Counted from the stretch's first letter, positions 8,859 to 63,457 are shown. The stretch is DNA of 64,000 nucleotides from an uncultured Clostridium sp. (GCA_905213875.1 CAJMJN010000001.1:59940-123939); one strand, 5' to 3'. The notes: generated by a model not told the origin, from the sequence alone. Program-made: numbers and translations.

Positions 8859-9070
8859 TAGAAAGAATGCTGTTTTTATATATCAATTTATATTGCTTTT
8901 TTCGGCAATATGTAATAAAATAAACAACGAATAATGTGATAATAAAAACGAAAATAAAAATATATATCATAAATTGTAAAAAAGTTTTTCTAGATAATAG
9001 ACTAGAAAAGACAAAAACCACAAAGGACAAGTATTAAAATTAGCTTATCAAATAATAAGAGGTGGTAAGG

Positions 9071-46559: not shown

Positions 46560-46922
46560 TTACTGAAAAGCTTGTTTTATTTGTTTAATTTTATAATTAC
46601 TATTATTTATTAATATTTCTATAACATCATATCTACTTGGAATATCATATAATCCATACATATAATTATAATATGAAGCAACTGATTTAATATGTTTTTG
46701 TTTTATTTTTGAAACCGAATCTCTTGGTTCCCCATATTTTGAACCTGTTCTAGTTTTAACTTCTACAAAAACTATTTCTTCTGTTGTTTCATCATATACT
46801 ATTATATCTATCTCACCTTGTTTACATCTAAAATTTTTTTCTATTATTCTATATTTATTTTTTTGAAAATATTGTACCGCTATATTTTCTCCATCAACAC
46901 CTAATTCATGTTGTTTATACAT
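46560..46922 (-). CDS. yraN: YraN family protein (UPF0102, predicted endonuclease)
   Basis: ENIAVQYFQKNKYRIIEKNFRCKQGEIDIIVYD. 120 aa. Confidence 0.7.
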   Translation of the reverse strand: MYKQHELGVDGENIAVQYFQKNKYRIIEKNFRCKQGEIDIIVYDETTEEIVFVEVKTRTGSKYGEPRDSVSKIKQKHIKSVASYYNYMYGLYDIPSRYDVIEILINNSNYKIKQIKQAFQ

Positions 46923-47806
46923 ATATATCCTCCATTTCTTTTTTGTATATATTGATTTATTTCTAATATTAATAAGTTTTCATTTATTTTATTTATTGGC
47001 ATTTGTACTTTTTGACATATATCATTTATTGATACTATTTTCTCACTACCACTATTGTTCAAAATATTATAAATGCATTCTTGTTCTTTGTTTTCAAATT
47101 TTATTTTTGATTTAATTTTTTCATTTATCTTCGTTTCATATTCCTGTATTTCCTTATATTTTAGAAATTCAAATTCATCTATTATTTCTTTAGTTTTTGT
47201 TATTAATATAGCACCTTTTCTTATTAATCTATTTGTTCCTACTCCATGTTTGTCATTTATTTCATGTGGTATTACAAATACCTTTTTTCCCTGTTTTTGG
47301 GCAAGTGATGCTGTTACACTTGTTCCACTCCTGTGTCCTGCTTCAACTACTAATACTCCTATTGATAAGCCACTTACAATCCTATTTCGTTCCAAAAATC
47401 TTGAAGAACATGGTTCAATATTAGGTTTATATTCGCTTATTATTAATCCTTTATTTTCTAATATTTCTTTATATAAATTTGTATTTTCTTTTGGAAATAT
47501 ATTATTTAATCCACTTCCTAATACTGCTATTGTTTTTCCTTTAGCCCTTAACGTTCCTTTATGAGCTTCACTATCAATTCCTTTTGCCATACCACTTATA
47601 ATGATTATTCCTTGGTTTGATAATTCAATTGCAAATTTTTGTGCTAATTTTTTACCATTTTCTGAACAATTTCTTGAACCTATTATTGCAATACAATTTT
47701 TATTTAATAATTCTATATTTCCTTCTACATATAACTGTTTTGGTGGATTATCTATTTTTAATAAACTTTTTGGATATTTTTTATCATTAATTGTTATTTT
47801 TTGCAT
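46901..47806 (-). CDS. dprA: DNA processing protein DprA/Smf
   Basis: AIIGSRNCSENGKKLAQKFAIELSNQGIIIISGMAKGIDSEAH Rossmann-like DprA core. Confidence 0.85.
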   Translation of the reverse strand: MQKITINDKKYPKSLLKIDNPPKQLYVEGNIELLNKNCIAIIGSRNCSENGKKLAQKFAIELSNQGIIIISGMAKGIDSEAHKGTLRAKGKTIAVLGSGLNNIFPKENTNLYKEILENKGLIISEYKPNIEPCSSRFLERNRIVSGLSIGVLVVEAGHRSGTSVTASLAQKQGKKVFVIPHEINDKHGVGTNRLIRKGAILITKTKEIIDEFEFLKYKEIQEYETKINEKIKSKIKFENKEQECIYNILNNSGSEKIVSINDICQKVQMPINKINENLLILEINQYIQKRNGGYICINNMN

Positions 47807-47811
47807 TTATT

Positions 47812-49354
47812 TTAACTCCAATATTTTCTGTCTAAATTTCTATATTGTATTGCTTCTGCTATATGACTTATTTCTATTTTTTCTTTTTCTTCTAAATCAG
47901 CTATGGTTCTAGCTATTTTTAAAATTTTATTATATCCTCTTGCACTAAGTCCTAAATTTTTAAAAGCCTTTTCTAATAATTCTTTACTTTTATCATCTAT
48001 TTTACAATATTTTTCTATTAAACTAGGAGTTAGCTCTGCATTTGAATAAATTTTATATTTTTTGTATCTTTCTATTTGCCTGTTTCTTGCTTTATTCACT
48101 CTTCCCCTTATCTCATCTGATGTTTCTAATTTTACTTGGTTTTCTAATTGAGTGTATTCCACATTTTCTACTTCTATATGTAAATCAATTCTGTCTAAAA
48201 GTGGACCACTAATTTTGCTTATATATTTCTTTATTTGTTCCGGTTTACATGTACATTTTTTCACATTTGATCCATAATAGCCACATGGACATGGATTCAT
48301 ACTGGCTATAAAAATAAAATTACATGGATATGTTATTACTGAATTTGTTCTACTGATAGTGACTTGTTTATCTTCCAATGGTCCTCTTAATGTTTCTAAT
48401 ACATTTTTGTCAAATTCTGTTAATTCATCTAAAAATAGAACACCATAATGGGCTAAACTTATTTCTCCGTGGTTTTGGTATTCTTCCTCCTCCAATTAAG
48501 GATGCAATAGTTATGTTATGATGTGGACTTCTAAATGGCCTTTGCTGTATTAATGGATTTTCTTGATTTGCTAGTCCTGAAATACTATATATTTTTGTTG
48601 TTTCTAATGATTCTTCAAAGTTCATATCAGGAAGTATTGAAGGTAATCTTTTAGCTAACATTGTTTTTCCTACCCCAGGGCTTCCTATTAAACAGCAGTT
48701 ATGTCCTCCTGCTGCTACGATTTCCAAAGCTCTTTTTACACTTTCTTGTCCTTTAACTTCTGAAAAATCAACTTCATATTTATTTTCAGTTTTTACATCT
48801 ATTTTTCTTTTTTCTACTTCTTTTAATTTTTGGTTTCCATTTAAATATTCAATTAGTTCATTTAAATATTCTACTGGTAATATTTGTATTCCATCTATTA
48901 TAGATGCTTCTTTTATATTTTCTTTTGGAAGTATAATTCTTTTTATTCCTAGTCTTTTAGCTTCTATAACTATTGCTAAAATTCCATTTACTTTTTCGAT
49001 TTTTCCATTTAATGATAATTCCCCAATAAAAGCTGTTTCTTTTAAAAATTTATTTAAATCTTTATTTTTGATTTCCTTATTAGAAATTAAAACTCCAATT
49101 GCTATTGGTAAATCAAATTTTGATCCTTCTTTTCTTGTATTTGCAGGTGCTAAATTTATAATAATTTTTTTACTATTTAAATGTATTCCTGTATTTTTTA
49201 TTGCCGTTTTTACTCTTTCTTTTGATTCTTTTACACTCATATCTGGTAAACCAACAATTTCAAAATATGGTAATCCATCTGATATATCTACTTGAATAGA
49301 AACTAGATATCCGTCTAAACCATTTAGTGCTATGCTTTGTACTATTGATAACAT
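47812..49354 (-). pseudogene. comM: YifB/ComM family Mg-chelatase-like AAA+ ATPase split by a +1 frameshift (an extra C near 48470) into 309-aa and 227-aa reading frames
   Basis: The N-terminal ORF ends ...LIGGGRIPKP and the C-terminal ORF continues ...GEISLAHYGVLFLDE. Deleting one C from CCAAAACCACGGAGAA fuses them into a canonical YifB. Confidence 0.7.
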
Positions 49355-49368
49355 TTTTTCCTTTCTTA

Positions 49369-49534
49369 CATGTTTAGATTTCTGAGGCCACTATATGTTA
49401 TTATCTAAAATGGGGATTTAGAGAAATTATACGATTAAAATCGGGGGATAGTAATTTTAAGATCTTTGATTTAAACAATTACATGTTTACTTAATAATAG
49501 GGGTACATATAATGACCTCAGAAATCTAAACACA
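49369..49534. repeat. Inverted-repeat element: two arms of about 30 bp (27 of 30 complementary) separated by about 106 bp
   Basis: CATGTTTAGATTTCTGAGGCCACTATATGT ... ACATATAATGACCTCAGAAATCTAAACACAT. Confidence 0.4.
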
Positions 49535-49779: not shown

Positions 49780-49914
49780 ATGGAGAAACTAATAGGAAAA
49801 GTTACAGTTTCTGTATTCAAAAATGAAGATGGCACTACTTCTTTTATTGTTTCATCAGATGAAGAAGTATTACCTGTTTCGTACGTTATTGAAGACATTT
49901 TAAAATTATATTAA
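49780..49914 (+). CDS. Small protein of 44 aa (MEKLIGKVTVSVFKNEDGTTSFIVSSDEEVLPVSYVIEDILKLY)
   Basis: AAAAGGGGGG ribosome-binding site before the ATG. Shorter than the ORF-track cutoff. Confidence 0.4.
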   Translation: MEKLIGKVTVSVFKNEDGTTSFIVSSDEEVLPVSYVIEDILKLY

Positions 49915-49982: not shown

Positions 49983-50540
49983 TTATTCTAACCCATAATT
50001 TCCTGTTGTAAAATCTCTAAACAAATTCACTTCTGGTGAATAATATGTGAATAAAATAAAGCAAAATAATAAAAATACTAATATTATTATTGCCAATATT
50101 TTTGTTTTTTCATTACTCTCATTTTTTCTTGTCATTAGTTTATATGCAACACATTCTCCAATAATAATGCTTAAAATAAATATTAATATATCTATAAAAA
50201 ATATACCTGCACCTATAATTCCTGTATATGTAAAATATGCTACTATTATGAAGAAAATTGCTACAAATATCCCTATGGTTTTTGCCTCTAAATAATTGTT
50301 AACTCTATTTTTTACTATAAAATATTCTATAATTGCAAATATTCCCATTGGATAAAATACTAATTTTAGGTGTTCCCATATGCTTTCATTTACTGGAACA
50401 AATGCTGCTATTATTTTATTTTCTCCTGTCCATTGATATACAAAATGAAACAGAGTTCCACATATTATGCTAAATATTATTGCTACTATTTGTATTTGTA
50501 ATACTTTACTTTTCTTAACTTTTGTTAATATTGATTCCAT
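49983..50540 (-). CDS. Integral membrane protein with five or six transmembrane helices, downstream of the histidine kinase
   Basis: Hydrophobicity pattern. No AgrB-type His/Cys pair. Confidence 0.5.
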   Translation of the reverse strand: MESILTKVKKSKVLQIQIVAIIFSIICGTLFHFVYQWTGENKIIAAFVPVNESIWEHLKLVFYPMGIFAIIEYFIVKNRVNNYLEAKTIGIFVAIFFIIVAYFTYTGIIGAGIFFIDILIFILSIIIGECVAYKLMTRKNESNEKTKILAIIILVFLLFCFILFTYYSPEVNLFRDFTTGNYGLE

Positions 50541-50602: not shown

Positions 50603-52033
50603 TTATCTTTCAATATTTTCTATTATTAATTTATTTTCTTCATCTTTTTCTTTTAATTCTTTTCCCTTATAAGATATAATCTTGTATTCATTTTTATTGT
50701 TAAATTTAAATTTTAATACTTTTGTAAAATTACTTTTTGATGGCTTTCCAATTTCTTCTATTTCTAGACTACCTTTAGTTTTGCTTAATGTTTTAAAAGT
50801 ATTCATAAATCCCATACCTGTTCCGCCTTCACTCTTATGTGTTGTTATTGGAATTTTCCCTAAGTTTAATAGTGTATTAAATTCAAACTCAATACCACTA
50901 TCATAAAAATATACTCCATATATACCATCTATTTTTCCAATTTTTACCAATATACTTTTATTAATGTTTTCACAATGATTTATTGCTATAATTGCATCTT
51001 TTATGTGATCTGCAAGTAAAATTTCTAAATCTTCTTTAGGAATATAATTATTAATCATATGATATATATTACCATTTATTTGTAGTTGAAATTCAATATC
51101 ATTTTCTACACATTTCGCTTGCATGCAATCAAGCATATCATCTACTATTTCTATTCCAGTTTTCTCAAGTTCTATTTTTGTTTTCTTTCTTAAATCTTTT
51201 GTTATATTATCTATTTGAGCATTTATTGAGATTTCATCTGCAAATTCTGTATTTTTAGATAACTTTTCTAGCTTATGTTTTAATGAATCTTGTCTATGAG
51301 CTATTGAATGACTTATTTCACTAAAGCTTAAATTTTCAGCTTCTAGTTTTTTTACTTCTTCTGTCTTATCTGCTAGATCTTTTTGTGTTTTCTCTAATAC
51401 TTTTTCTAACATTTGTTGTTTATAATATAATTGTAATGATTTCCATATTGTTATAAACATTACTATTGCAAATATAATTAGCATTACTCCAAATTTAGAA
51501 GTTATACCTTCTTGATAATTTGAAATTATAACTATTAAGAATAATATTGCACTACTAGCATTTAATAATAATAAATTTATATATTCGTCATTTTTCCATT
51601 TCTTTAGGAATGTTATTCCATTACGAATTCTTTTAATTTTCCAAAATAGAAATAGTAGTATAGCCTGAACTAATGCAATTAATATGAATGCTAAATATCT
51701 ATTTTCTATATTTAGTAGTTTCATTGGAAAATATATAAATGTCGATGCAATATAGAATAAAATTTGATTTATTGAAATTGACACTGCAGATATTAGCATC
51801 GAGTACATTATTTTAAACTTATATATAATAGTATAAATTATGCTTATACAGATCAAAGTAAAGATAGTTGTATTTATTTCTCTGTTTAATAACATGCTCA
51901 TACAAATATAGAGAATTGCCGTTATTATATACATTATTGCCCACTTATAATTTATTTTTTCTTCTAAATTTAATACTTTTTTATTGCTATATGATGTAAA
52001 TAAACTCATCACTAACATTTTGATACACAACAT
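50603..52033 (-). CDS. GHKL-domain sensor histidine kinase of the AgrC/HPK10 type, with six or seven N-terminal transmembrane helices
   Basis: Transmembrane bundle, coiled linker, H-box-like FSEISHSIAHRQD, N-box LLADHIKDAIIAIN, G-boxes YFYDSGIEF and GGTGMGFMN. Probable start is the second Met, which has a GGAGG ribosome-binding site. Confidence 0.7.
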   Translation of the reverse strand: MLCIKMLVMSLFTSYSNKKVLNLEEKINYKWAIMYIITAILYICMSMLLNREINTTIFTLICISIIYTIIYKFKIMYSMLISAVSISINQILFYIASTFIYFPMKLLNIENRYLAFILIALVQAILLFLFWKIKRIRNGITFLKKWKNDEYINLLLLNASSAILFLIVIISNYQEGITSKFGVMLIIFAIVMFITIWKSLQLYYKQQMLEKVLEKTQKDLADKTEEVKKLEAENLSFSEISHSIAHRQDSLKHKLEKLSKNTEFADEISINAQIDNITKDLRKKTKIELEKTGIEIVDDMLDCMQAKCVENDIEFQLQINGNIYHMINNYIPKEDLEILLADHIKDAIIAINHCENINKSILVKIGKIDGIYGVYFYDSGIEFEFNTLLNLGKIPITTHKSEGGTGMGFMNTFKTLSKTKGSLEIEEIGKPSKSNFTKVLKFKFNNKNEYKIISYKGKELKEKDEENKLIIENIER

Positions 52034-52060
52034 TTCTTTTTCCTCCACGTTTTATTATAT

Positions 52061-52100
52061 AAAAAAAGAGAAAAGAATTCAATATTCTTTTCTCTTTTTT
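52061..52100. terminator. Bidirectional intrinsic terminator between the micro-ORF and the histidine kinase gene
   Basis: AGAGAAAAGAAT-tcaat-ATTCTTTTCTCT flanked by A7 and T5 runs. Confidence 0.5.
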
Positions 52101-52111
52101 AATTTTAAATT

Positions 52112-52159
52112 CTATTTAAACCAATAGCTAATCCATTTCCAGTAATCTTCCCAACTCAT
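52112..52159 (-). CDS. 15-codon Trp-rich micro-ORF MSWEDYWKWISYWFK; leader or signalling-peptide candidate
   Basis: Shine-Dalgarno AAGGTGGTGG 5 nt before the ATG. 4 of 15 codons are Trp. The terminator lies 17 nt downstream. Confidence 0.3.
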   Translation of the reverse strand: MSWEDYWKWISYWFK

Positions 52160-52307
52160 ATTTTCCACCACCTTTTTATTAGTTTTTTAATCTTTTGTCT
52201 GTCTCTTCTTGTCTAATAAAAAGATACCAATTATTTGCTTAAAATAACTGGTATTTGGTGATAGAGAAAACTGGTTGAAAATAAAAAAATCTAGTATTTT
52301 TTAAATA

Positions 52308-53096
52308 CTAGATTTCTTTTCTTATTTTCTCTGCATAATGATAAATTAATTCCATAGGTGTTGGTTCACCTGTTTTATAATTTACTACTGCTGTATAATT
52401 TTTCATCAATTCATCTAATGGCGTTTTAGCCCATGCATGTGATATTGCATTTTGAATTCCATTAGTAATTGTACTTTCTGTTCTTTGATGCTTTTTAGTC
52501 AAATATCTTATTACATTTATGTCGCTATCTTCATTTTGCACTAAAAACATAATTGCATCATGGATATATCTTCTGCCTTTCATTTTTGCTGTTATTCCTA
52601 TCAAGTCTAACTCTCTGTCTATACTTTTTGATATTTTATTTTCCAAATCTTGTTTTTCTAATTCATATGTTTCTGGTAGTTCTTCTATTTCTTCTTTCCT
52701 ATAAGTTAAGAGCGTATTAAATACATTTTCACTAGAATAGTTTGCTTGTTCTTTATACATTATTAAATCTACATTATCTCTATGAAGTATTTCATATGTT
52801 CTTTTTGACTTTACATGTGTAGTAACAATAATAACTGGTTCATAATTTGGACTAATCTTTCTCAGTTTTGAAACAATTCCCATTGAACTCACATTTCCAT
52901 TACTACTATTATTCAATTCTAAGTCTAATATAATTCCTTCTGGCCTTTTTTCTTTTGCATACTCTAAACCATCAATATCTGAATCTGTTATTTTTACTAT
53001 TTGTATATCATTTCTTCTTTTAGCACATTCTCTAAATTTATTGCATGCATTCACATCATCTTCTATTATTAATATTGTCATAGGCTTAAAATTCAT
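52308..53096 (-). CDS. Response regulator with a receiver domain and a Spo0A_C-type DNA-binding domain; divergent Spo0A paralogue
   Basis: Receiver domain with EDD and ILDLEL (phospho-Asp). The C-terminus aligns to Spo0A_C: LDLIGITAKMKGRRYIHDAI / TITNGIQNAISHAW / EPTPMELIYHYAEKIR against Spo0A [20 protein letters not shown] / RVERAIRHAIEVAW / KPTNSEFIAMVADKLR. Confidence 0.7.
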   Translation of the reverse strand: MNFKPMTILIIEDDVNACNKFRECAKRRNDIQIVKITDSDIDGLEYAKEKRPEGIILDLELNNSSNGNVSSMGIVSKLRKISPNYEPVIIVTTHVKSKRTYEILHRDNVDLIMYKEQANYSSENVFNTLLTYRKEEIEELPETYELEKQDLENKISKSIDRELDLIGITAKMKGRRYIHDAIMFLVQNEDSDINVIRYLTKKHQRTESTITNGIQNAISHAWAKTPLDELMKNYTAVVNYKTGEPTPMELIYHYAEKIRKEI

Positions 53097-53217: not shown

Positions 53218-53574
53218 GTGACATTCGTAAAAATGAATACTAGTATTGAAATGGACGAAAAAGTCGAAAGAGGAAAACGTATTAAAGATATCAGGGAAAA
53301 CGAATTACACATGACAAAAATTCAACTTGGAAAAGAAATTGGTATTTCAGGACAATTTTTAGGATTAATAGAAAATGGTAGAGGAAATCTTGTTTATCCT
53401 TCTTTAAAAAAATTAATGAATATTAGTGGACATTCTGCTGATTACATTTTATTTGGATTAGATGACTCTATAATTAGTAATACTCAGAAAATTTTAGATA
53501 AATACCAAGATAAACAAATTATTGAAAGTATAAAATTAATTGAAAATATTTCAATTTTTATGAAAAATTTATAA
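53218..53574 (+). CDS. XRE family helix-turn-helix transcriptional regulator, divergent from the response regulator
   Basis: MTKIQLGKEIGISGQFLGLIENGRGN helix-turn-helix. Confidence 0.7.
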   Translation: MTFVKMNTSIEMDEKVERGKRIKDIRENELHMTKIQLGKEIGISGQFLGLIENGRGNLVYPSLKKLMNISGHSADYILFGLDDSIISNTQKILDKYQDKQIIESIKLIENISIFMKNL

Positions 53575-53689: not shown

Positions 53690-54772
53690 CTATTTTTCTG
53701 ATATTTCTGTAGGCATATTTTCATATAATGGAATTATAAAGTTTAAATTACTATCAACTGTATCTGATGCTTTATATATTTTTAGCATACTTTTTGCTTC
53801 TGACTGTGGTGCCATTAAATTTTGCATATATTGATTTTTGTATAATGAATTATCACCATTTACAACATCAAATTTTTGTAAATATAATGTGTTTTGTCCT
53901 TTATTTATATAATCTTCTTTTACATATTCAATTCCACCAACAATTGCTTTTTCTAACGAATCCCATCCCTGTTCATATGCATATTGGGCTGCATTGCTTA
54001 ATATTTCCGAACTTGAATTTCCTTTTGCACCTATATTAAATGGATTATAAACTATATTTTCTTCATTATATTGATATCCTTTGGACAATACAGTTCCTTT
54101 TTTTCCTTGTTCTTGAATCAATCGTGAAGCTACAAAATATGGATCTATATTAGCCTTTTCGCCAGCTTCTATCAATGCTTTTTGAACAGCTTCGTTATCT
54201 AAAAATGTATTTTTAGTTATTACTTTTAGCCCTTTTTCAGTTTGTGCATTTTTTACATATTTTAATTCTATAAATTGAAATATATTATCATCATTTAATA
54301 TGTTTCTAGGATCCATTTGACATTTTATTGCTTTATCAGATGCACATAGCCATGTTCCATTATCAAATTTTTTATCTTTATCAATCTCACATTTCCAATC
54401 TTCTGGATAATCATTTGAATCTGGTATTAAATTAGTTGGATATTTTACATTATCTTTATGCCCTTCATTTTCTATTACTTCTTCCCAATTCAATTTTGTA
54501 TAAAATAGTGTAAATTCCCAATTTGGATGTAATTCTTTTAAATTATCTATTAATTCTTTATAGCCTGGATATCTTACTTCATTTAAATTTTTTCCATCAT
54601 ATGCTACATATTTTTGTTCTTTGTTTTCTTTAAACAGCATATTTATTCCAGTAATTATTCCTATTAATATTAATATACCAGCAACTATTTTTATTGTTTT
54701 TTGTGGATTATCTTTTATTATTTTTATAATTTTTCTTATGCAATTATTTATTTTATCTTTATATCTTTTCAT
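53690..54772 (-). CDS. Membrane-anchored putative peptidoglycan hydrolase (glucosaminidase-like)
   Basis: N-terminal transmembrane helix. C-terminal region is weakly LytD/FlgJ-like (YNPFNIGAKG, QYAYEQGW). Confidence 0.45.
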   Translation of the reverse strand: MKRYKDKINNCIRKIIKIIKDNPQKTIKIVAGILILIGIITGINMLFKENKEQKYVAYDGKNLNEVRYPGYKELIDNLKELHPNWEFTLFYTKLNWEEVIENEGHKDNVKYPTNLIPDSNDYPEDWKCEIDKDKKFDNGTWLCASDKAIKCQMDPRNILNDDNIFQFIELKYVKNAQTEKGLKVITKNTFLDNEAVQKALIEAGEKANIDPYFVASRLIQEQGKKGTVLSKGYQYNEENIVYNPFNIGAKGNSSSEILSNAAQYAYEQGWDSLEKAIVGGIEYVKEDYINKGQNTLYLQKFDVVNGDNSLYKNQYMQNLMAPQSEAKSMLKIYKASDTVDSNLNFIIPLYENMPTEISEK

Positions 54773-55096: not shown

Positions 55097-55408
55097 TTAT
55101 TTTGATAACATTTCCAATATTTCTTTTTTATCAACAACACCTACTGATCTAGAAACTTCTTTACCACCTTTTATAACAACCAATGTTGGTATTGACATTA
55201 CTTTATAGTCTAATGCTATATTAGGATTTTCATCTACATTGACTTTAGCTACTTTTATATCATCATTTTCTTGTGCTATCTCGTCAACAATTGGCGCTAA
55301 CATTTTACATGGTCCACACCAATCCGCATAAAAATCAACTAGTACTGACATTTCACTTTGTAGTACTTCTGTTTTAAAATTATCGTTTGTTATTTTTTCA
55401 ATTTTCAT
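55097..55408 (-). CDS. trxA: Thioredoxin
   Basis: WCGPC active site. 103 aa. Confidence 0.9.
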   Translation of the reverse strand: MKIEKITNDNFKTEVLQSEMSVLVDFYADWCGPCKMLAPIVDEIAQENDDIKVAKVNVDENPNIALDYKVMSIPTLVVIKGGKEVSRSVGVVDKKEILEMLSK

Positions 55409-55622: not shown

Positions 55623-55698
<76 letters not shown>

Positions 55699-55699
55699 C

Positions 55700-55730
55700 A
55701 AAGTTTAAAAACAAACTTTTACTTTTGGGT
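55700..55730 (+). terminator. Terminator after the tRNA
   Basis: AAAGTTT-AAAAAC-AAACTTT followed by TACTTTT. Confidence 0.5.
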
Positions 55731-55865
55731 AGATGGTTTTGCAATATCTTGCAGTTTACCAGAAAAGTAATAAGTAGTGTAAAAATAAGTTAAATAATTA
55801 TTTATTTAGCTTATTTTTTTTTTGCGTAAAATATTATTAGAATAATATAATAGGAGGAATTAGAA

Positions 55866-56147
55866 ATGAAAGAGAAAATAGATAAAACAACAGCATTAAT
55901 AAGATTATTGGAACATAATGAAGCAATTAGCATAATAGGTAAGAATAATCAAAGGATTAATAGCTTAAAAGATTTAAAAGGAAATTTTAAAAATATTATT
56001 GATTTATCTTATTCAATAAACATACTTTTAGATAGTTCAAATATAGAAGGATTTGATTTCTTAATTATGACGGTTTCTGATATAACAAAAATAGAAGAAA
56101 CTTTGACTGATTTGTTAGAAAAGCTAAAGGTATCACAAAATTTATAA
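55866..56147 (+). CDS. Hypothetical protein (island)
   Basis: AGGAGGAAT ribosome-binding site. First gene after the tRNA. Confidence 0.5.
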   Translation: MKEKIDKTTALIRLLEHNEAISIIGKNNQRINSLKDLKGNFKNIIDLSYSINILLDSSNIEGFDFLIMTVSDITKIEETLTDLLEKLKVSQNL

Positions 56148-56165
56148 ACAAGAAGGTCAAGAAAA

Positions 56166-56372
56166 ATGTTAAGAGTAGTTGAATTAAAAGAAACAGTATT
56201 AGATAGCTCTGTATATGAAAATGCCTATAAAATAAAAGATTTGTCAGAACATATTATAGAAGAACTGCAATTACATCCTGAAATAAACAAAGATGATTAT
56301 AATTATTTAGAAATAGTATTAGAAAAGACCAAAACAAATTTACAAAAATCATATATGGTTATGAAACTATAA
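56166..56372 (+). CDS. Hypothetical small protein (island)
   Basis: Tightly spaced open reading frame on the same strand. Confidence 0.45.
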   Translation: MLRVVELKETVLDSSVYENAYKIKDLSEHIIEELQLHPEINKDDYNYLEIVLEKTKTNLQKSYMVMKL

Positions 56373-56499
56373 AAGTGCTAAAACACCTGGAATGACTGAA
56401 TTACCACCTTTACCAAATTCAAAAGATGTAGTAAAATTATTATAATATTAGAATATCTAATATATATAACATATATACAATGTTGTGGAGGTGGTAAAA

Positions 56500-56928
56500 A
56501 TGTGTTTAAAAACGAATTTGGTGTGTCAAAATAATAATTTAGAACAAGATGTAATACAACAAGCAAAAGAAATAATAAACTTATTGGAAAACGGTAGACA
56601 AAAGGAACAGCTACTAAAATATGAAGTTGTAAGGCAACAAGGCTATTACAATATGTTTGACCCACGAGCAAGAAAATTAACAGGGCTTTCTGAAAAAGAA
56701 TATATTAATATTCAAAACCATTATTCTGAATTAATGCAGAAATATCCTAATGTAAAAGAACAAGCTAGGAAAAACTTAGGTTATATGAAGTCAGCTGCTA
56801 TTGCAAAAGTAATCGCTCTAAATGGCTGTAAGAAATGTAAAAGAATAGTAAGTAACAAATTAGATGTAACACTAAAAGATTTATGTGAGAATTGTAGAAA
56901 AATAGTAAAACCTTACATTACTCAATAA
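56500..56928 (+). CDS. Hypothetical protein with a C-terminal CxxC-N14-CxxC zinc ribbon
   Basis: GGAGGTGG ribosome-binding site before the ATG at 56500. C-terminal motif GCKKCKRIV...CENCRKIV. Confidence 0.5.
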   Translation: MCLKTNLVCQNNNLEQDVIQQAKEIINLLENGRQKEQLLKYEVVRQQGYYNMFDPRARKLTGLSEKEYINIQNHYSELMQKYPNVKEQARKNLGYMKSAAIAKVIALNGCKKCKRIVSNKLDVTLKDLCENCRKIVKPYITQ

Positions 56929-56971
56929 ATTAAGTGGAACATCTAATTTTTTGTAGGTAAAGAGGTGTGAA

Positions 56972-57358
56972 ATGGAATTTATAAAATATAATAATAATCC
57001 CAAAAATAAAAAAACTGGCGACTGTGTAATTAGAGCAATAGCAACAGCAACAAATAGTAGTTGGGAATATGTATATATTAAATTAGCTGAACTAGGAATA
57101 AGAAAAGGGTTAATTATTAATGACCCTAATAATTGGCAGAAATATTTAGAAATATTAGGGTATGAAAAACAAAAAATGCCACGAAGATCCGACAGGACAA
57201 GATATACTTTAGAAGAATTTGCAACAGAGATAGCAGAAGAAAACAAAATATATCTTGTAAGGTTGGCTGGTCATCTTACAGTTATAAAAAATAAAAATTT
57301 AATTGATACATGGAATTGTAGTTATAAATCAGTTGGAAACTATTGGATAGTGGTGTAA
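56972..57358 (+). CDS. Predicted papain-fold (C39-like) cysteine peptidase-like protein
   Basis: N-terminal TGDCVIRAIATAT (Gly-Asp-Cys) and a later LAGHLTVI (Gly-His), consistent with a Cys-His dyad. Confidence 0.4.
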   Translation: MEFIKYNNNPKNKKTGDCVIRAIATATNSSWEYVYIKLAELGIRKGLIINDPNNWQKYLEILGYEKQKMPRRSDRTRYTLEEFATEIAEENKIYLVRLAGHLTVIKNKNLIDTWNCSYKSVGNYWIVV

Positions 57359-57388
57359 TACAAAGAAAGGAACTTTGGAATCTTGAAA

Positions 57389-57694
57389 ATGATAAAAATT
57401 TTAGTAGTAGAACCAAATAAAAAAATGTATGAAAAAACGATAAAAAATACAATAAATGAAATTTATGGGTTGGTATTTTATCCATACGAAGAAATAGAAA
57501 TACAAAAAGATGTATTTGTAATTTATAGTAAAGAAGCAACACTACTAAGGGATAAAATGTTCAAAGAGAATAGAAAAATCAATAATATTGATATTTTTGG
57601 AACTTTTGTAATAGTAGCAAAGAAAAACAACAAACTAATATCTTTAACAGATTATCAAGTACAAGAAATTAAAAATTTATTTTTAGAAAGGTAA
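57389..57694 (+). CDS. DUF3846 domain protein, common in ICE and prophage accessory regions
   Basis: MIKILVVEPNKKMYEKTI...GTFVIVAKK matches the DUF3846 pattern. Confidence 0.55.
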   Translation: MIKILVVEPNKKMYEKTIKNTINEIYGLVFYPYEEIEIQKDVFVIYSKEATLLRDKMFKENRKINNIDIFGTFVIVAKKNNKLISLTDYQVQEIKNLFLER

Positions 57695-57758
57695 TAAAAT
57701 ATGATAATTAGAAGTACATTGAAAACAAATCTATATACAGAAATCTTAGAAAGGTACT

Positions 57759-58112
57759 TTGATGATGGACGGACCTTTTGTTTTAACATATTATAATTCC
57801 AAAAAGGAATTTAAAGATTTTAAAAAATATGTTAAGGAATTGGAAAATTATAATCCACATTTTGATAACAGAAAAGAGATAAAAAGTAAAATCGGAAATG
57901 TAGTAAAACAAAATTTTAACAATTATATTAATAGCATAGAAACAAATAGTAAATGGCATACAAAATCGTTTAATATTAGAAGATTAAATACATATAAAAA
58001 TTTTATTTTGGAAAACATTGAAATAAAAATAGTAGATTTAATGGCAGATATTTCATTAAATAAAGAAGTGGTATTTTATATATCTCAAGCCAGACAATAT
58101 ATAACATTGTAA
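57759..58112 (+). CDS. Hypothetical protein (island)
   Basis: Open reading frame in a compact same-strand array. Confidence 0.4.
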   Translation: MMMDGPFVLTYYNSKKEFKDFKKYVKELENYNPHFDNRKEIKSKIGNVVKQNFNNYINSIETNSKWHTKSFNIRRLNTYKNFILENIEIKIVDLMADISLNKEVVFYISQARQYITL

Positions 58113-58126
58113 AGGTGGGATTGAAT

Positions 58127-58291
58127 ATGGAAGAAAAACAAAAATGTAAATATTGTAACAAAGAAATAAATGGATATGTAGAGACATCAAGATTAGACCC
58201 AAGAATAAAATTATGTAGTAATTGTTACTATATGGAAATGTTTGAAATGGCAATTACAAAAATAGTATCAGAAAGTGAGAAAAATAAGTGA
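58127..58291 (+). CDS. 54-aa zinc-ribbon protein (CKYCNK ... CSNCYY)
   Basis: AAAGGTGGGA ribosome-binding site. Stop codon overlaps the next start (GTGA). Shorter than the ORF-track cutoff. Confidence 0.45.
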   Translation: MEEKQKCKYCNKEINGYVETSRLDPRIKLCSNCYYMEMFEMAITKIVSESEKNK

Positions 58292-58776
58292 AAGATTTAA
58301 TTGAAATAATAAAAATGGTGGCACAACAATATAAAAATATTAAGCTTGATATAATAGAAAATAAACTAAAATTAAAATTTTATATAATGAATAACATATA
58401 TAAAACATTAGAAATAACACAAGAAAAGGGTAAATTAAAAGTGCTAATAGTAGAAGATAAAATTACAAAAATTATGAAGTTAGAGGAATTAAAAGAATTG
58501 ATTTTAATTTTATATAAACAAAGTAATGCTAGAGAATACAGCAAAGAAGAAATTAAACTAATAAAACAAAAATATGTGCCTGGTACTAAAATTGAGTTAA
58601 TAAAAATGTACGATTACATAAAACCAATTCCACCAATGACAAGAGGTATGGTTGATTTTGTAGATGACTTAGGGACAATTCATGTGATATGGGAAAATGG
58701 TAGTAATTTAGGTTTAGTAGTTGGAACAGATATATTTAAAACAATATGTCCATTATGCAACCAAGAAATAAAATAA
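58288..58776 (+). CDS. DUF4314-domain protein, a family found on conjugative elements and prophages
   Basis: The C-terminal segment YVPGTKIELIKMYDYIKPIPPMTRGMVDFVDDLGTIHVIWENGSNLGLVVGTD has the DUF4314 pattern. Confidence 0.5.
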   Translation: MKDLIEIIKMVAQQYKNIKLDIIENKLKLKFYIMNNIYKTLEITQEKGKLKVLIVEDKITKIMKLEELKELILILYKQSNAREYSKEEIKLIKQKYVPGTKIELIKMYDYIKPIPPMTRGMVDFVDDLGTIHVIWENGSNLGLVVGTDIFKTICPLCNQEIK

Positions 58777-58897
58777 TAATTAAAAACAATTTAAAATAGT
58801 TTTACTATTTATGATATAAAATTATACAGTAAATATATAAAAACGTGAATATGACAGTATTACGGTACAAATTGAAGTATAAAATTAGGAGGAGTAA

Positions 58898-59389
58898 ATG
58901 AATAAAAATGAAGAATTAAAAGAAAAAATCAAAAATATGGAAACAGAAGATTTAATGAAAGCTTTGGTAAATAAAATGGGTTATGAATTTTCAAACGAAA
59001 CTATTATTAGTGAAAAAGCTGATAACTATAATGAAGAAAAAGAAGATTTGTATACAGGTTATTTGCTAGGGTTTGATGAAGTATTTGAAACACATACACA
59101 AGAAAGATTAAAAGAAACACCATTACTTATGGACCTATTTCAAAATTTTATACAAGAATTATACAAGCCAAGTAAATTATATAACATTGCAATAGAAATA
59201 AAAAGTAGAATAAATGAAGAACTAAAAAATACATTAGATGTTGACCAAAGAAAGTTACTTGAACAATGGCAGTTTTGTGAAGATAGAATACTAGATGATA
59301 TGATAGAACAAGCATTTATATATGGTTATGCAATGTCAGCACAGCTAAGATATGAAGCAATAAAGAAATATCCATACAAAAAAGAGTAG
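58898..59389 (+). CDS. Hypothetical protein (island)
   Basis: AGGAGGAG ribosome-binding site. Acidic helical protein. Confidence 0.45.
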   Translation: MNKNEELKEKIKNMETEDLMKALVNKMGYEFSNETIISEKADNYNEEKEDLYTGYLLGFDEVFETHTQERLKETPLLMDLFQNFIQELYKPSKLYNIAIEIKSRINEELKNTLDVDQRKLLEQWQFCEDRILDDMIEQAFIYGYAMSAQLRYEAIKKYPYKKE

Positions 59390-59400
59390 TATTATGTGTG

Positions 59401-59769
59401 CTACTCTTTGGAACTAGAACTATTATTTACAAGAAATTGTAAATAACGGTCAAAACATTTTTGATCTTCATTTGATAATGAATTATATTTATTTAAAATA
59501 TCAGCATTTTTTACATTATTATTTTGAGCAAGATATTTAATTGGTGTAGTAATATCAGTTAATCCTAAAAGATAATCAGTAGAACAGTTAAAATACTGAG
59601 CAATTTTTATTATCATATTAGGTTGAGGGAAAGAACTGCCAACTTCGTAACGAGAAATAAGTTCTTGACTAACATTTAAGTCAATACTTAATTTTAATTG
59701 TGTTATATTTTTGGATTCTCTTAATTTCTTTAGATTTTCTAATTTATCTATAACTTTATTATCGTTCAT
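59401..59769 (-). CDS. XRE family helix-turn-helix regulator (repressor-like) of the island, divergent from the downstream module
   Basis: ITQLKLSIDLNVSQELISRYEVG helix-turn-helix. Confidence 0.65.
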   Translation of the reverse strand: MNDNKVIDKLENLKKLRESKNITQLKLSIDLNVSQELISRYEVGSSFPQPNMIIKIAQYFNCSTDYLLGLTDITTPIKYLAQNNNVKNADILNKYNSLSNEDQKCFDRYLQFLVNNSSSSKE

Positions 59770-59937
59770 AAAACCCCTCCATCAAACTATAAGTATTATA
59801 TTAGTTATTTTTGCCAACGACAGCAAAAACATTAATATTTTCTATGAGTAATACTTGTACAAAATATGAATTAGTGCTATACTGGAAATAAAGTATTATT
59901 TTGTCAAAAAAGACAAAAAAATGAAAGGAGTATAAAT

Positions 59938-61458
59938 ATGGGAAAGTTGGAAAAATTAGAACAACTACAAAAATTAAAAGAAAGTGGTAGCCTAACAGAG
60001 GAAGAATTTAAGCAAGAAAAAGAAAAGCTGTTAAGTGGAGAAAACAAGAAAAGTAAAAAAGTAATTATTATTATTTTGACAGTTGTACTATTAGTTTGCA
60101 TTGTAGGTGGAATATATTATTTTATATCAAATAAATCTGCTGAAACAAGTTCAAGTGGTAACTCAAAAAAAGATGAAAGTGGATTTGAGCAAGCAAGTAA
60201 AAATAAGCAAGCAAGTGAAACAAAAAATTTGAGTTTTAGCAGTATGAGTGCAGATGATGAAGGACTTAGCGACACTCAAAAAGATATAGTTAATTATTTT
60301 GATTACGATTATTTTTCATTTTATAGTAAAGATTTACAAAGGTATCCTCAAATATTTAATAATGCCAAAGTCCAAACAATAGGTGTTGTTGTAAAAGTAT
60401 TAGAGTCTTCAAATGATGAATTCAAAGTTGTAGTTGCCCAAGGTGGTGGAAAAACTATGAGTGGAAGAAGTGAAGATGACTCTCCAAGAATATACGATGA
60501 AGGATTAGGAAGTCAATCAATTGATGACATTGATACAAACATATTATTTGTTTTAAGTGGAAAACAATTAGAAGAAAGATTGTTAAAAGGTGATGTCATA
60601 CAAATGTATGGAAGATATGAAAATGTATCAAATTTCGAAATTGATGGCAAGACATATGAGTTACCACTTGTAAATTCAATTACAACATATAGATTATCTG
60701 ATAACGATGGTAAATTTAAAGAGCAAAAAGTAAAAAATATAGCAGAATATATTTTTTCTAAAGATATAAAATTTTCAAAAATTGGTTCGGGAGTAGAAGG
60801 AACATCTTATAATGTAGTTTTAGATAATCAATCTAATGGAAACTTTAAAGCCTTTATTATGGGTAATGAAGGTGGTCCTATACTTTATGATTCAGATTAC
60901 AATAATCTTAGTTACAATATTACAAAAAAATTATGGGTAGGAGCAGATTTTGAAAATTATTTCGTAACAACATATGATGAAGGAACTAAACATGCATACT
61001 TAGAAGCTTTTAATAAAGATTTGAAAAAAATTTGGCCTTTGGAATTTGATATAAAAGATAATAGTACCTATAGTCAAATGCCAATAGATTTTACAAAATC
61101 TAAAATAGCAATAGTAGTGGATAATGATTTATATATAATTAATGCAGAAACAGGAGAATTTTTAACCAAACCAATACTTGTAGGTAATAAAGTAAAAGTT
61201 AATATAGTAGATGATGGTATAATATTAATAGGAAACTCTAATAAAGATACAATTATGAAAGTATCATTTGACGGAGAAATTTTAGAAAGACAAGATGCAG
61301 ATTCTAGTTTATCTACTATTAATTCAGCATATACCCAAATGATTGATAATAAAATGGTAATATGCTTAGAAGGTGATTCATTAGTAAGAAAATTTATAAT
61401 TATTGATGAAAATGGTCATATAGAATCAAATTCAAAAGATTTGGAATATGGAGAATAA
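59938..61458 (+). CDS. SHOCT-domain membrane protein with a large ectodomain (about 430 aa)
   Basis: N-terminal SHOCT motif LEQLQKLKESGSLTEEEFKQEKEKLL, then a single transmembrane helix, then the ectodomain. Confidence 0.5.
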   Translation: MGKLEKLEQLQKLKESGSLTEEEFKQEKEKLLSGENKKSKKVIIIILTVVLLVCIVGGIYYFISNKSAETSSSGNSKKDESGFEQASKNKQASETKNLSFSSMSADDEGLSDTQKDIVNYFDYDYFSFYSKDLQRYPQIFNNAKVQTIGVVVKVLESSNDEFKVVVAQGGGKTMSGRSEDDSPRIYDEGLGSQSIDDIDTNILFVLSGKQLEERLLKGDVIQMYGRYENVSNFEIDGKTYELPLVNSITTYRLSDNDGKFKEQKVKNIAEYIFSKDIKFSKIGSGVEGTSYNVVLDNQSNGNFKAFIMGNEGGPILYDSDYNNLSYNITKKLWVGADFENYFVTTYDEGTKHAYLEAFNKDLKKIWPLEFDIKDNSTYSQMPIDFTKSKIAIVVDNDLYIINAETGEFLTKPILVGNKVKVNIVDDGIILIGNSNKDTIMKVSFDGEILERQDADSSLSTINSAYTQMIDNKMVICLEGDSLVRKFIIIDENGHIESNSKDLEYGE

Positions 61459-61660
61459 TTAGTAAATAGAAAAAAGTTCGCTTAAAATATTATAAAGCGA
61501 ACTTTTTGACTTGTGAAATTTAAAATATGGTTATAAAATTAAATTGCTACAATACTAAATATTTGTCTGCCATTATTACTAGCCCCTTATTAAATCTAGT
61601 AATACCTACAATACTAAAATGTATTGTAGCATTTATTATATATGAAAAAAAGGAATCAAA

Positions 61661-62479
61661 ATGAAAACAAATTTAGAAATGCTAGATAAGATAGTAAACT
61701 TAAATAACCCAAAGTTACTTATGATTTGTGGAAAAAACGATATTGAAAAAATATTTAATATAAATTTAGTATCAACAATTACTTTAGAGCAACAAAGTCC
61801 AACAGCTATATTCTATAATAAAAAAAATGAAAATTTAGAAGATACTACAAGCATACAGGATAAAATATTATCAAATTATTATCACATAGATATACAAGAA
61901 ATTAGTAATTATAGGTTAGCAGAAAGTTGTAACGTAAGAGAAAATTATAACTGGACACAAAACGAATATGTGTACTTAGATGGTGGAGATCTAAAACTAA
62001 AGATACCCAATAAAGAAAATCAAGATAAATTGAAATATAGATATGAAGAAATAGAAAAGTCAAATTTATATATTAATGCCATAGAAACAACTACATTAGA
62101 AGATTTAAAAACAAAATGCAGAAAGCTAAAACAAAAAAATGATGTAAAATTAATCATTATCAACGATTTAGAAATACTTAAGACTTACAATGTAATAGCT
62201 GTTAAAGAATTAAAACAGCTATCTATTGAACTTGGTATTGTAATAATAGTTAGTTCCCCTATCATATTAAATTTGGAAATACCATTAGAAAAACAGATAA
62301 GAGATACAGAAAAGATAGTAGAAAATAGCGATATAGTTATATATATGAATAAGCCAAATACCAAATTAGAAGAAATAATAAAAATAGTAATAGCAAAGAA
62401 CAATGGTGGAAAAACTGGAATTATTGAAGTCGCATATATTGATAAATACTGTAAGATTTGTAATTTGGCTAAGATATAA
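61661..62479 (+). CDS. DnaB-helicase C-terminal (RecA-fold) domain protein with a degenerate Walker A; lacks the DnaB N-terminal domain
   Basis: The C-terminal 120 aa align to the DnaB C-terminus (LIIINDLEIL...ELGIVIIVSSPIILNLE...DSDIVIYMNKP...IVIAKNNGGKTGIIEVAY). The Walker A position reads LLMICGKND. Confidence 0.5.
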   Translation: MKTNLEMLDKIVNLNNPKLLMICGKNDIEKIFNINLVSTITLEQQSPTAIFYNKKNENLEDTTSIQDKILSNYYHIDIQEISNYRLAESCNVRENYNWTQNEYVYLDGGDLKLKIPNKENQDKLKYRYEEIEKSNLYINAIETTTLEDLKTKCRKLKQKNDVKLIIINDLEILKTYNVIAVKELKQLSIELGIVIIVSSPIILNLEIPLEKQIRDTEKIVENSDIVIYMNKPNTKLEEIIKIVIAKNNGGKTGIIEVAYIDKYCKICNLAKI

Positions 62480-62499
62480 AATAAAAAAGGAGAAACTAA

Positions 62500-63366
62500 A
62501 TGAGTTGTTTTATAACGTGTAGAAGAATTGTCATAGGAAAAACAAAAAAGAAAGCACTAATAACAGTATGTAAAAATTGTAATGATTATGGAATACCACA
62601 TTTTAACTATATTTCAAAAAAATACGAAGTAACATTTAGCCTTTTATCTTCTGAATTCGTAGATACATTCGAAAATATAGAATTAGAAGATAGAACAGAT
62701 ACGGAAGAATTTTTGAATACAATAGTAGATATAACAGATGTGAAAAAAACAAATAGAACAATTAGAAAGTTAAATAAACAATTTTTTAGAAAACAAAAAA
62801 TAAGAAAAATAAAATATGCAAATATATATGAAACTCTAAATGAGGGCAATAAATATTTTGAAGTAGACATTGCAGATATTGAGCCAGATATGACATATTG
62901 GGAATTAATAGTAAAATTATGGAATAAAAATAACGAAGAAAAAACACCAACTAATTTACTAAAGCCATATTACAGAAATTTTATAGAATATATTGACACA
63001 GCAACTTTTGGACTTAAAAAACATTTAAACGGTGGAACGTGTTACACTAAACAAGACCAAGAAAGAACACCACATTTTATTTATAAAGTACCAACAGGAG
63101 AAGAATTTGCAATTTTATTTGAAAAGGCAGAATACTTACAACCAACACCAAGAAAACTAACACAAAAGGAATTAGATGTATTGGTAAAGTTTCTAAATAC
63201 AGAATATAAAATCCAAGAAGAAGTAGAAACTTATTGGCAGTCCGGTGTATGGTTATGGAATAACCAAAATTATGAGTATAACGAATATTCTCCAAAGTGG
63301 TTTCCAAAATATAAGAAAATAGCTGATAATGTGAAAATGCCTGATTATACCAAATTAAATAATTAA
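62500..63366 (+). CDS. Hypothetical protein with an N-terminal C4 zinc ribbon
   Basis: CFITCRR...CKNCNDY motif. AAGGAGAAA ribosome-binding site. Confidence 0.45.
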   Translation: MSCFITCRRIVIGKTKKKALITVCKNCNDYGIPHFNYISKKYEVTFSLLSSEFVDTFENIELEDRTDTEEFLNTIVDITDVKKTNRTIRKLNKQFFRKQKIRKIKYANIYETLNEGNKYFEVDIADIEPDMTYWELIVKLWNKNNEEKTPTNLLKPYYRNFIEYIDTATFGLKKHLNGGTCYTKQDQERTPHFIYKVPTGEEFAILFEKAEYLQPTPRKLTQKELDVLVKFLNTEYKIQEEVETYWQSGVWLWNNQNYEYNEYSPKWFPKYKKIADNVKMPDYTKLNN

Positions 63367-63457
63367 ATGAAAAATTACAGTAATGTAACTTTATTGTTTT
63401 AAAATAAAAACACGTTAAAATTGATTTTGGTACGTTGAAAAGTATTGAAAATCCATA

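Follow-up and report, generated by a model that had tools for sequence, protein, structure and literature searches.

What does a response regulator built on Spo0A's DNA-binding domain do beside a dedicated membrane histidine kinase? The question is raised by positions 50603–53096 of a stretch of DNA of 64,000 nucleotides from an uncultured Clostridium sp. (GCA_905213875.1 CAJMJN010000001.1:59940-123939), analysed at its full length and called the window below. The initial annotation of this stretch described a Spo0A paralogue paired with an AgrC/HPK10-type kinase, a small multi-pass membrane protein after the kinase, and a divergent XRE regulator, and suggested either a second input into 0A-box regulons or a quorum-type circuit. 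A further gene, a mini open reading frame (mini-ORF) in the 274-nt regulator–kinase spacer, was not mentioned there. The locus is likely to be a peptide quorum-sensing cassette with three components, belonging to a new family and using a Spo0A-derived regulator, often with an XRE regulator alongside. This reading is preferred because the peptide and the sensor part of the kinase are hypervariable and co-vary, while the regulator and the catalytic half of the kinase are conserved, as in known pherotype systems. The features concerned are:

52308–53096, minus strand: response regulator of 262 amino acids, receiver plus Spo0A_C (Pfam)
52112–52159, minus strand: mini-ORF of 15 codons and a stop, encoding MSWEDYWKWISYWFK, the proposed pheromone precursor or pheromone
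51620–52160, minus strand: hypervariable cassette, consisting of the peptide ORF, a spacer, and kinase codons 1 to ~135 with transmembrane helices (TM) 1–5, delimited by DNA and protein alignments and by nonsynonymous and synonymous divergence (dN/dS)
50603–52033, minus strand: membrane histidine kinase of 476 amino acids, with 7 TM, a DHp helix, and a GHKL ATPase domain

The gene order is thus regulator–peptide–kinase, in three transcription units. The kinase ORF as opened spans 50603–52048, the most likely true start being the ATG at 52033. The regulator, the peptide ORF, and the kinase form the core and travel together, with the XRE gene alongside in most lineages.

The mini-ORF is preceded by a strong Shine–Dalgarno sequence, AAAGGTGGTGG, at 52165–52175. 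Its product has 4 Trp among 14 residues, against 0.6% Trp in the proteins of the window (P ~1e-6), and a net charge of about 0. Equivalent mini-ORFs, likewise behind a strong Shine–Dalgarno sequence in the same position, are seen in both species-representative genomes (MSWEDFWKYISRVFG in L001 and MNWLDALIRWMRKWGQP in L002), and also in loci with a 58%-identical regulator. With the 80 loci added to the set by a metagenome scan, the mini-ORF is present in 66 of 87 loci and encodes 39 distinct peptides of 13–20 residues; the loci lacking it are mostly short contigs or belong to a kinase-less regulator subfamily. In the alignment of 41 peptides (the 39 distinct ones and two from distant loci), Trp occupies three columns (37, 39, and 37 of 41) spaced i, i+7, and i+11, which places the three Trp on one face of an alpha-helix. 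Asp or Glu stands at i+2 in 39 of 41 peptides, and the middle Trp is followed by a hydrophobic residue and then by basic or polar ones. Judging by this spacing, the peptide is probably helical and amphipathic, with its Trp arranged in a stripe.

The mini-ORF, again with its Shine–Dalgarno sequence, is also kept in this position beside distant kinases, 29–30% (L094 and L098) and ~26–27% (L093) identical to that of the window, in organisms of higher G+C content (55% in L098). The peptides of these three loci are MSLWEYLYWLFHRGH, MWGWVAAWGTWASGLARR, and MATFMAIWQYVCDCFRDVFK. The mini-ORFs of L094 and L098 adjoin a regulator with receiver and Spo0A_C domains; the L093 contig holds only a Spo0A_C-like C-terminal fragment.

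Peptide and sensor vary together. Loci L003–L006, with an identical regulator, have three different peptides and kinases of differing length, and one regulator cluster (at least 96% identity) holds 8 peptides in 9 loci. We compared 189 locus pairs in which the regulators are at least 93% identical and the C-terminal 270 amino acids of the kinases at least 90% identical. The sensor regions are at least 96% identical in the 80 pairs with the same peptide, and 25–77% identical (median 41) in the 109 pairs with different peptides. Five peptide alleles occur in the species of the window: MSWEDYWKWISYWFK, MSWEDYWKWISHWFG, MSWEDFWKWVSGWFG, MSWEDLWKWVSHWFG, and MSWEDFWKFVSHWFG.

Within this species the boundaries of the variable segment are sharp. 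The cassette DNA of the window is 59–71% identical to that of the same-species loci L016 and L017, against 95–100% for kilobases on both sides, a stretch that takes in the XRE, regulator, DUF6512, and comM genes. Divergence at the DNA level sets in at the start of the peptide ORF and ends near kinase codon 135; when the proteins are aligned, the transition lies exactly at FW(K/R)IKRIRNG, after TM5. For same-species alleles, the sensor shows dN of 0.28–0.45 and dS of 0.75–1.3; the rest of the kinase, dN of 0.001–0.024 and dS of 0.016–0.16; and the regulator, dS of 0.013–0.077. The cassettes are old alleles kept or exchanged as a unit. The same mosaic is known from the agr specificity groups, comCD/blp pherotypes, and comQXPA, with which the locus shares a small peptide gene next to the kinase and regulator genes and within-species co-variation of peptide and sensor. 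The quorum-type circuit suggested by the initial annotation thus gains strong support from evidence absent there, namely, the conserved mini-peptide gene and the strain-level co-variation.

The kinase belongs to a large family: a word-indexed search returns 2150 relatives, and of clusters formed at 50% identity, at least 996 give a match with E ≤ 0.001. In the family alignment of 54 members, 24–55% identical to the window protein, His242 (codon 51308–51310) is invariant (54/54) and is aligned with the H-box His of ZraS. The G1 box D378-x-G380 is invariant, as is the G2 box G403-G404-x-G406-x-G408, except for G403 (52/54). The best PDB matches of the family profile are the sporulation kinase KinB (E 1.1e-6) and ZraS (E 2.9e-5), the latter match extending from the H-box to the ATPase domain; the window kinase alone has no significant match in PDB. 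Among the 54 members, the Pfam model HATPase_c is found in 31, and the AgrC-type HATPase_c_5 (PF14501) in 3 (best E 1.8e-4); the Pfam DHp models match none of them, and the 120 closest kinase relatives have no precomputed Pfam domains.

The AlphaFold2 (AF2) model of the kinase (mean predicted local distance difference test, pLDDT, 83.8) has helices at 2–21, 29–48, 52–71, 75–106, 112–132, 150–171, and from 177 onward, joined by loops of 3–17 residues; assuming that the N-terminus is outside, the loops on the outer face have only 3–8 residues. The last TM helix of the model runs into a long helix bearing His242, followed by the alpha/beta ATPase domain. Foldseek against PDB gives 96 matches at E ≤ 1e-3; all 50 of the matches listed are histidine kinases, AgrC being at rank 38. 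Given the invariant boxes, the profile and fold matches, and the rarity of HATPase_c_5, we take the protein for a genuine histidine kinase with an AgrC-like topology, outside the AgrC/ComD family. It shares with HPK10 kinases a polytopic sensor with 6–7 TM and no large extracellular domain. The AgrC/HPK10 assignment is rejected in view of HATPase_c_5 in 3/54 members, the low rank of AgrC, and a partner whose output domain is Spo0A_C, not LytTR. Of the initial description of the kinase, therefore, the polytopic protein with 7 predicted TM and the GHKL domain stand, whereas the family label is wrong and is apt only as a functional analogy. In the search for HATPase and HisKA families proposed there, the window kinase stayed below all thresholds, the DHp models failed throughout the family, and HATPase_c was recovered in the 31 members mentioned. 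The pairing with the regulator is kept in four of five distant kinase relatives checked.

The regulator has a receiver domain (Pfam Response_reg, PF00072, 30.9 bits at a cut-off of 30.2) and an output domain that matches Spo0A_C (PF08769) at 53.1 bits (cut-off 25) over profile positions 2–104 of 104; over its entire length, the C-terminal half can be aligned with Spo0A DNA-binding domains of known structure, 1FC3 and 1LQ1 (E ~1e-6). The domain composition and the block-for-block alignment claimed initially are hence confirmed. The Spo0A block SRVERAIRHAIEVAW indeed reads STITNGIQNAISHAW here, differing from the canonical recognition helix. The regulator scores 70.9 bits on the Spo0A equivalog model TIGR02875, well under its cut-off of 200, and is ~22% identical to Bacillus subtilis Spo0A over 272 residues; both figures point to a paralogue, as proposed. 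Canonical spo0A is a single-copy gene without an adjacent kinase and typically adjoins spoIVB; the neighbours here are the XRE gene, the peptide ORF, and the kinase. A tblastn search with B. subtilis Spo0A over the window and all 99 loci matched only the paralogue itself. There are 973 regulator relatives at E ≤ 1e-5.

In the recognition helix of the window regulator, TITNGIQNAISHAW, the charged residues Arg, Glu, Arg, and Arg of Spo0A (SRVERAIR) are replaced by Thr, Thr, Asn, and Gln (TITNGIQN), and the replacement is invariant in 27 family members. T209, I210, N212, and G213 of this helix are invariant in 27 relatives 57–68% identical to the regulator, and so is, in the same relatives, the phospho-acceptor set E12, D13, D14, D58, T92, T93, and K115. 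True Spo0A proteins, from Bacillus to C. difficile, retain all DNA-contacting residues and read TGTCGAA (PMC3485338). Since the helix is altered here, the regulator very probably binds a DNA motif of its own and not the 0A box. Two copies of Spo0A have been counted in 10 genomes of Clostridiales and three in Anaerostipes hadrus, with no function given (bioRxiv 10.1101/2022.02.25.481979), and a much closer second Spo0A, 49% identical to that of B. subtilis, is described in C. thermocellum (PMC4890492).

Two variants of the regulator deserve mention. In L011, of the same species as the window, a single G-to-T change at position 9376 makes codon 147 a stop (E147*) and splits the receiver from Spo0A_C. 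This is a natural signal-blind or null allele, reminiscent of agr-null variants; natural null alleles are a feature of agr systems. In L045, L061, L069, L077, L086, L090, and L092, regulators of a subfamily 54–57% identical to that of the window have neither a peptide ORF nor a kinase downstream, but a conserved membrane-anchored protein of ~333 amino acids; they are orphan Spo0A-like regulators.

The spacers between the three genes contain the following elements:

52278–52311, minus strand: hairpin CTAGTATTT-AAAAA-ATACTAG with a T-run directly after the regulator stop, read from the sequence; likely terminator of the regulator gene
52247–52280, minus strand: conserved block TTTCAACCAGTTTTCTCTATCACCAAATACCAGT upstream of the peptide gene, in the family form TTT[ACG]CCAT-N7-TCTATCA-N2-3-AAATACC
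52224–52255, minus strand: imperfect palindrome ATACCAGTTATTT-TAAGC-AAATAATTGGTAT followed by a T-run, read from the sequence
52062–52100, minus strand: hairpin of 17 pairs with a T-run after the peptide ORF, resembling an intrinsic terminator
52054–52082, minus strand: promoter of the kinase gene (sigma-70 type, TTGAAT-17-TATAAT), which overlaps the preceding hairpin and lies just before the kinase ribosome-binding site

The first hairpin is kept in L003–L006 and L074. The conserved block is common to 32 non-identical loci, often with extra copies of TTT[ACG]CCAT ~21 bp upstream. Its nhmmer profile gives 67 matches, once per locus and always between the regulator and the kinase, with none significant elsewhere; a search with the consensus adds one weak match in the XRE–regulator spacer, at chance level (2 found versus 1.58 expected). 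The block is a candidate promoter or operator bound by the regulator, in which case the peptide gene would be autoinduced. In distant loci, other direct repeats take its position, CGACAT-type (0A-box-like) in L093 and CATTTGCA in three copies in L098, and each distant repeat type pairs with a different recognition helix; these repeats, too, are putative binding sites of the regulator. In the palindrome, the outer ATACC/GGTAT are conserved and the inner arms vary between loci; it may be a second terminator or an operator. No Rfam family matches the intergenic regions.

Downstream of the peptide ORF, a stable hairpin is present at the same position in 36 of 36 unique loci (minimum free energy −12 to −28 kcal/mol in 80 nt). 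TTGxxT-16/17-TATAAT between the peptide stop and the kinase start matches at least 9 of 12 positions in all 36 loci and at least 10 of 12 in 28, with a perfect TATAAT in 33. Given this hairpin and the kinase's own promoter, the peptide gene is a separate, terminated unit, and translation of the mini-ORF does not control the kinase. In L022, ~217–344 nt downstream of the regulator stop, a remnant second peptide start (ribosome-binding site and MNWYED...) is fused to a second copy of the promoter block, upstream of the intact peptide gene; it looks like a scar of cassette recombination.

The wider neighbourhood of the cassette in the window comprises:

55097–55408, minus-strand reading of the region: thioredoxin
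53690–54772, minus strand: membrane-anchored SagB-like glucosaminidase homologue of 360 amino acids, a weak relation (72.8 bits, cut-off 425)
53218–53574, plus strand: XRE-family (HTH_3) regulator, divergent from the response regulator (Pfam HTH_3, 25 bits)
49983–50540, minus strand: DUF6512 multi-pass membrane protein, co-directional with the kinase (PF20122, 120.5 bits)
47812–49354, minus strand: split comM
46901–47806, minus-strand reading of the region: dprA
9062–11509, within the window: spoIIE

The divergent XRE regulator, the small membrane protein after the kinase, and spoIIE, all named in the initial annotation, are thus found as described. The XRE gene is called as 113 amino acids from the ATG at 53233 in other strains; a homologue adjoins the regulator in most related loci, either divergent or, in the L038 group, between the regulator and the peptide gene. 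The DUF6512 match covers profile positions 11–181 of 181, above the Pfam gathering threshold. DUF6512 is present only in the window species, L001/L037, L003–6, and L067, and is 99–100% conserved between pherotypes. Being restricted to this sub-clade and not co-varying with the peptide, it is accessory, and its candidacy as an AgrB-like processing or export partner within the core is rejected on the same grounds. The glucosaminidase homologue is syntenic with the cassette in the window sub-clade (L001/L037 and L003–L006) and is a candidate regulated neighbour.

The source of the window (~26% G+C) is a common uncultured human-gut member of Clostridia. Many metagenome contigs, up to 352 kb, carry the same locus at 99–100% protein identity, and for the allele of the window kinase by itself the index of the assembly collection lists 272 blocks; identity of the regulator to the nearest species-representative genome is 68%. 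As to a mobile-element origin, no plasmid match was found, and unannotated gut phage records give three weak matches (23–34% identity).

Several features lie farther away. The Mg-chelatase-like competence gene comM consists of two overlapping ORFs on the minus strand (48425–49354 and 47812–48495); the split recurs in the contigs of the same species obtained from other samples, all six of them, and therefore reflects a frameshift or pseudogene that has become fixed, or else a programmed shift, rather than an assembly error. Immediately upstream of comM, at 49371–49532, there is a 28-nt inverted repeat, 93% complementary, with arms 106 nt apart and no other copy of the arm sequence within the window; possible interpretations are a structured leader, paired operators, and a miniature mobile element. 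The 630-nt DUF6512–comM spacer also contains an ORF of 44 amino acids (49780–49914, plus strand), called as a gene in all same-species contigs, with no recorded family match. At the end of the window, tRNA-Met (55623–55698) is followed by a strain-specific island (55623–64000) with phage-family small proteins, an XRE repressor (59401–59769), and a DnaB-like helicase (61661–62479). In other strains of the species, this position is occupied by a Fic gene and cell-wall genes, and the island is likely an element integrated at the tRNA. Two large ORFs on the plus strand, 370–3726 (1118 amino acids) and 6799–8814 (671 amino acids), have no Pfam match at E ≤ 1e-5.

How does the cassette compare with known systems? 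As in agr (AgrB–AgrD–AgrC–AgrA of staphylococci and clostridia), the peptide and the sensor are hypervariable and co-vary, the regulator and the catalytic half of the kinase are conserved, and natural null alleles occur. Unlike agr, however, there is no AgrB-like processing protein and no conserved Cys or Ser for a thiolactone or lactone ring; the ORF has 13–20 codons, in contrast to an agr precursor of ~46 amino acids; the kinase is not of the HPK10 family; the output domain is Spo0A_C in place of LytTR; and the order of genes and their distribution over three transcription units differ. In comQXPA of B. subtilis, too, the gene for the signal is variable together with the N-terminal membrane portion of the kinase, the kinase C-terminus and the regulator are conserved, and tryptophan is central to the signal. 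However, ComX is cut from a precursor of ~55 amino acids and isoprenylated on Trp by ComQ, for which there is no similar gene here, and the kinase ComP and the regulator ComA, with its NarL-type output, are of different families. The comCDE, blpCHR, and plnABCD systems of streptococci and lactobacilli resemble what is proposed here in a linear, unmodified, amphipathic helical pheromone, a polytopic kinase, an autoinduced peptide gene, and pherotypes; their double-glycine leader, dedicated ABC exporter, HPK10 kinases, and LytTR regulators have no counterpart in our locus.

Of single proteins, Spo0A shares with the regulator the receiver and Spo0A_C domains, the output domain being alignable throughout, including the helix-turn-helix and the C-terminal helix, but the regulator differs in its changed recognition helix and in its genetic setting, next to a gene for a dedicated kinase and one for a peptide instead of spoIVB. 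MgrB–PhoQ and Sda–KinA/KinB are similar in that each involves a very small gene product dedicated to a histidine kinase and presumably acting on it; these are not polymorphic within species, though, and form no cassette co-varying with the sensor. In the full-text literature, the coverage of which is incomplete, we found no description of the cassette, the peptide family, or DUF6512; an earlier description is possible.

The model that we favour may be outlined as follows. The 15-residue Trp-rich peptide MSWEDYWKWISYWFK would be translated from its own small transcription unit, would reach the outer face of the membrane, possibly unprocessed, and would partition into the outer leaflet, where TM1–5 of the 7-TM kinase would recognise it within the membrane by direct binding. 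The kinase, produced from its own constitutive-looking promoter, is predicted to autophosphorylate on His242 and to pass the phosphate to Asp58 of the regulator. The latter would act on its own non-0A motif, the one visible target being the block upstream of the peptide gene, and so close an autoinduction loop; a wider regulon may be supposed. With many co-varying peptide and sensor alleles (pherotypes) per species, strains would respond to their own dialect only.

A number of observations weigh against this quorum-sensing model. The peptide has neither a signal sequence nor a double-glycine leader, and the core cassette contains no exporter, peptidase, or modifying enzyme, that is, no dedicated processing or export component such as AgrB, ComAB, ComQ, or an equivalent; how the peptide would exit is the main gap in the model. 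A hairpin with a T-run lies between the conserved block and the mini-ORF, and within the loci neither the consensus nor the nhmmer profile of the block reveals regulator targets beyond the peptide promoter. Taken alone, the window kinase has no Pfam match above threshold (HATPase_c at 14.3 bits, E 0.056, and no HATPase_c_5), and its N-box position 346 is Asp, as in 31 family members including it, the other 23 having Asn. The correlation of peptide and sensor (Spearman 0.91) is calculated over locus pairs that are not phylogenetically independent. Finally, the distant loci L096 and L097 have no clear mini-ORF, and the mini-ORF of L098 has a single Trp.

The missing export and processing genes are also an argument for the mini-peptide being a private, membrane-resident modulator of the kinase, not secreted but providing feedback within the same cell, similar to MgrB for PhoQ or Sda for KinA/KinB. 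A short, amphipathic, overall uncharged peptide could conceivably insert from inside, and physical partners co-evolve under any topology. This explanation, however, gives no reason for many ancient, sharply bounded alleles within one species: the sensor dS is ~1 as opposed to 0.02–0.16 in the flanks, and the regulator cluster that has 8 peptides among its 9 loci repeats the signature of social signal–receptor pairs such as agr, comCD, and comQXPA. Moreover, 13–20 residues are too few to span a membrane, and we regard such a modulator as unlikely. Quite unlikely, too, is a Trp-rich membrane-active antimicrobial or lytic peptide, sensed to induce production or immunity (cf. nisin and NisK/NisR), with DUF6512 or the glucosaminidase-like gene as the immunity or effector function. 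Pheromone and bacteriocin roles often coincide, the Trp-rich amphipathic composition would suit this function, and both of these genes, the SagB-like one with its weak score, are syntenic with the cassette in the window sub-clade; but most loci lack both, DUF6512 does not co-vary with the peptide, and the window peptide has a charge of about 0, whereas typical antimicrobial peptides are cationic. This possibility also overlaps the signalling model rather than excluding it.

A second route into the Spo0A (0A-box) regulon via a dedicated kinase, one of the two initial suggestions, would be in keeping with an output domain homologous to Spo0A_C over its whole length, with spoIIE being carried by the organism, and with some distant members keeping a near-canonical helix (SIEKAMRHAIEATW in L094) and 0A-like repeats (CGACAT in L093) upstream of the peptide gene. 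It is made very unlikely by the loss of the charged helix residues, invariant in the clade of the window, by the retention of all DNA-contacting residues in canonical Spo0A, and by the conserved upstream motif being TTT[ACG]CCAT, not TGTCGAA. Scarcely credible, and rejected here, is a cis-acting Trp-codon leader peptide attenuating terminator read-through into the kinase gene. Its 3–4 Trp codons in 15 and the terminator-like hairpin that immediately follows the ORF and precedes the kinase gene do fit attenuation; against it stand the conserved kinase promoter TTGxxT-17-TATAAT between the terminator and the start in 36/36 unique loci, the conservation of charged positions, both acidic and basic, and the Trp spacing of i, i+7, i+11, which point to a functional peptide, and the co-variation with the transmembrane sensor, which attenuation does not predict.

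Beyond the quorum-sensing reading as such, a broader claim can be made, for and against which we see the arguments as evenly balanced: that the locus is the founding example of a widespread, undescribed Clostridia quorum-sensing family, found mostly in human-gut metagenomes, with a leaderless, probably unmodified peptide of 13–20 residues and three Trp, a new family of 7-TM kinases reading the peptide inside the membrane, a regulator derived from a Spo0A duplication, and, in each species, many dialects that are closed to one another. The known families of peptide quorum sensing in Firmicutes are few (agr, com/blp/pln, comQXPA, RRNPP), and this would be one more, made from entirely different parts. 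As the peptides are short, linear, apparently unmodified, and directly synthesisable, the hypothesis can be tested at low cost and the system has appeal as a set of orthogonal signalling tools, with dozens of natural peptide–receptor pairs available for specificity studies; the pherotype polymorphism is useful as a marker for typing strains and as a means of approaching kin discrimination in the gut. If the reading is true, it gives a function to unexplained Spo0A paralogues in Clostridiales genomes, shows the Spo0A DNA-binding domain re-used with a changed recognition helix, and places a signalling system in abundant, mostly uncultured gut Clostridia of very low G+C content, where it may make a developmental or cell-envelope decision dependent on kin-specific cell density.

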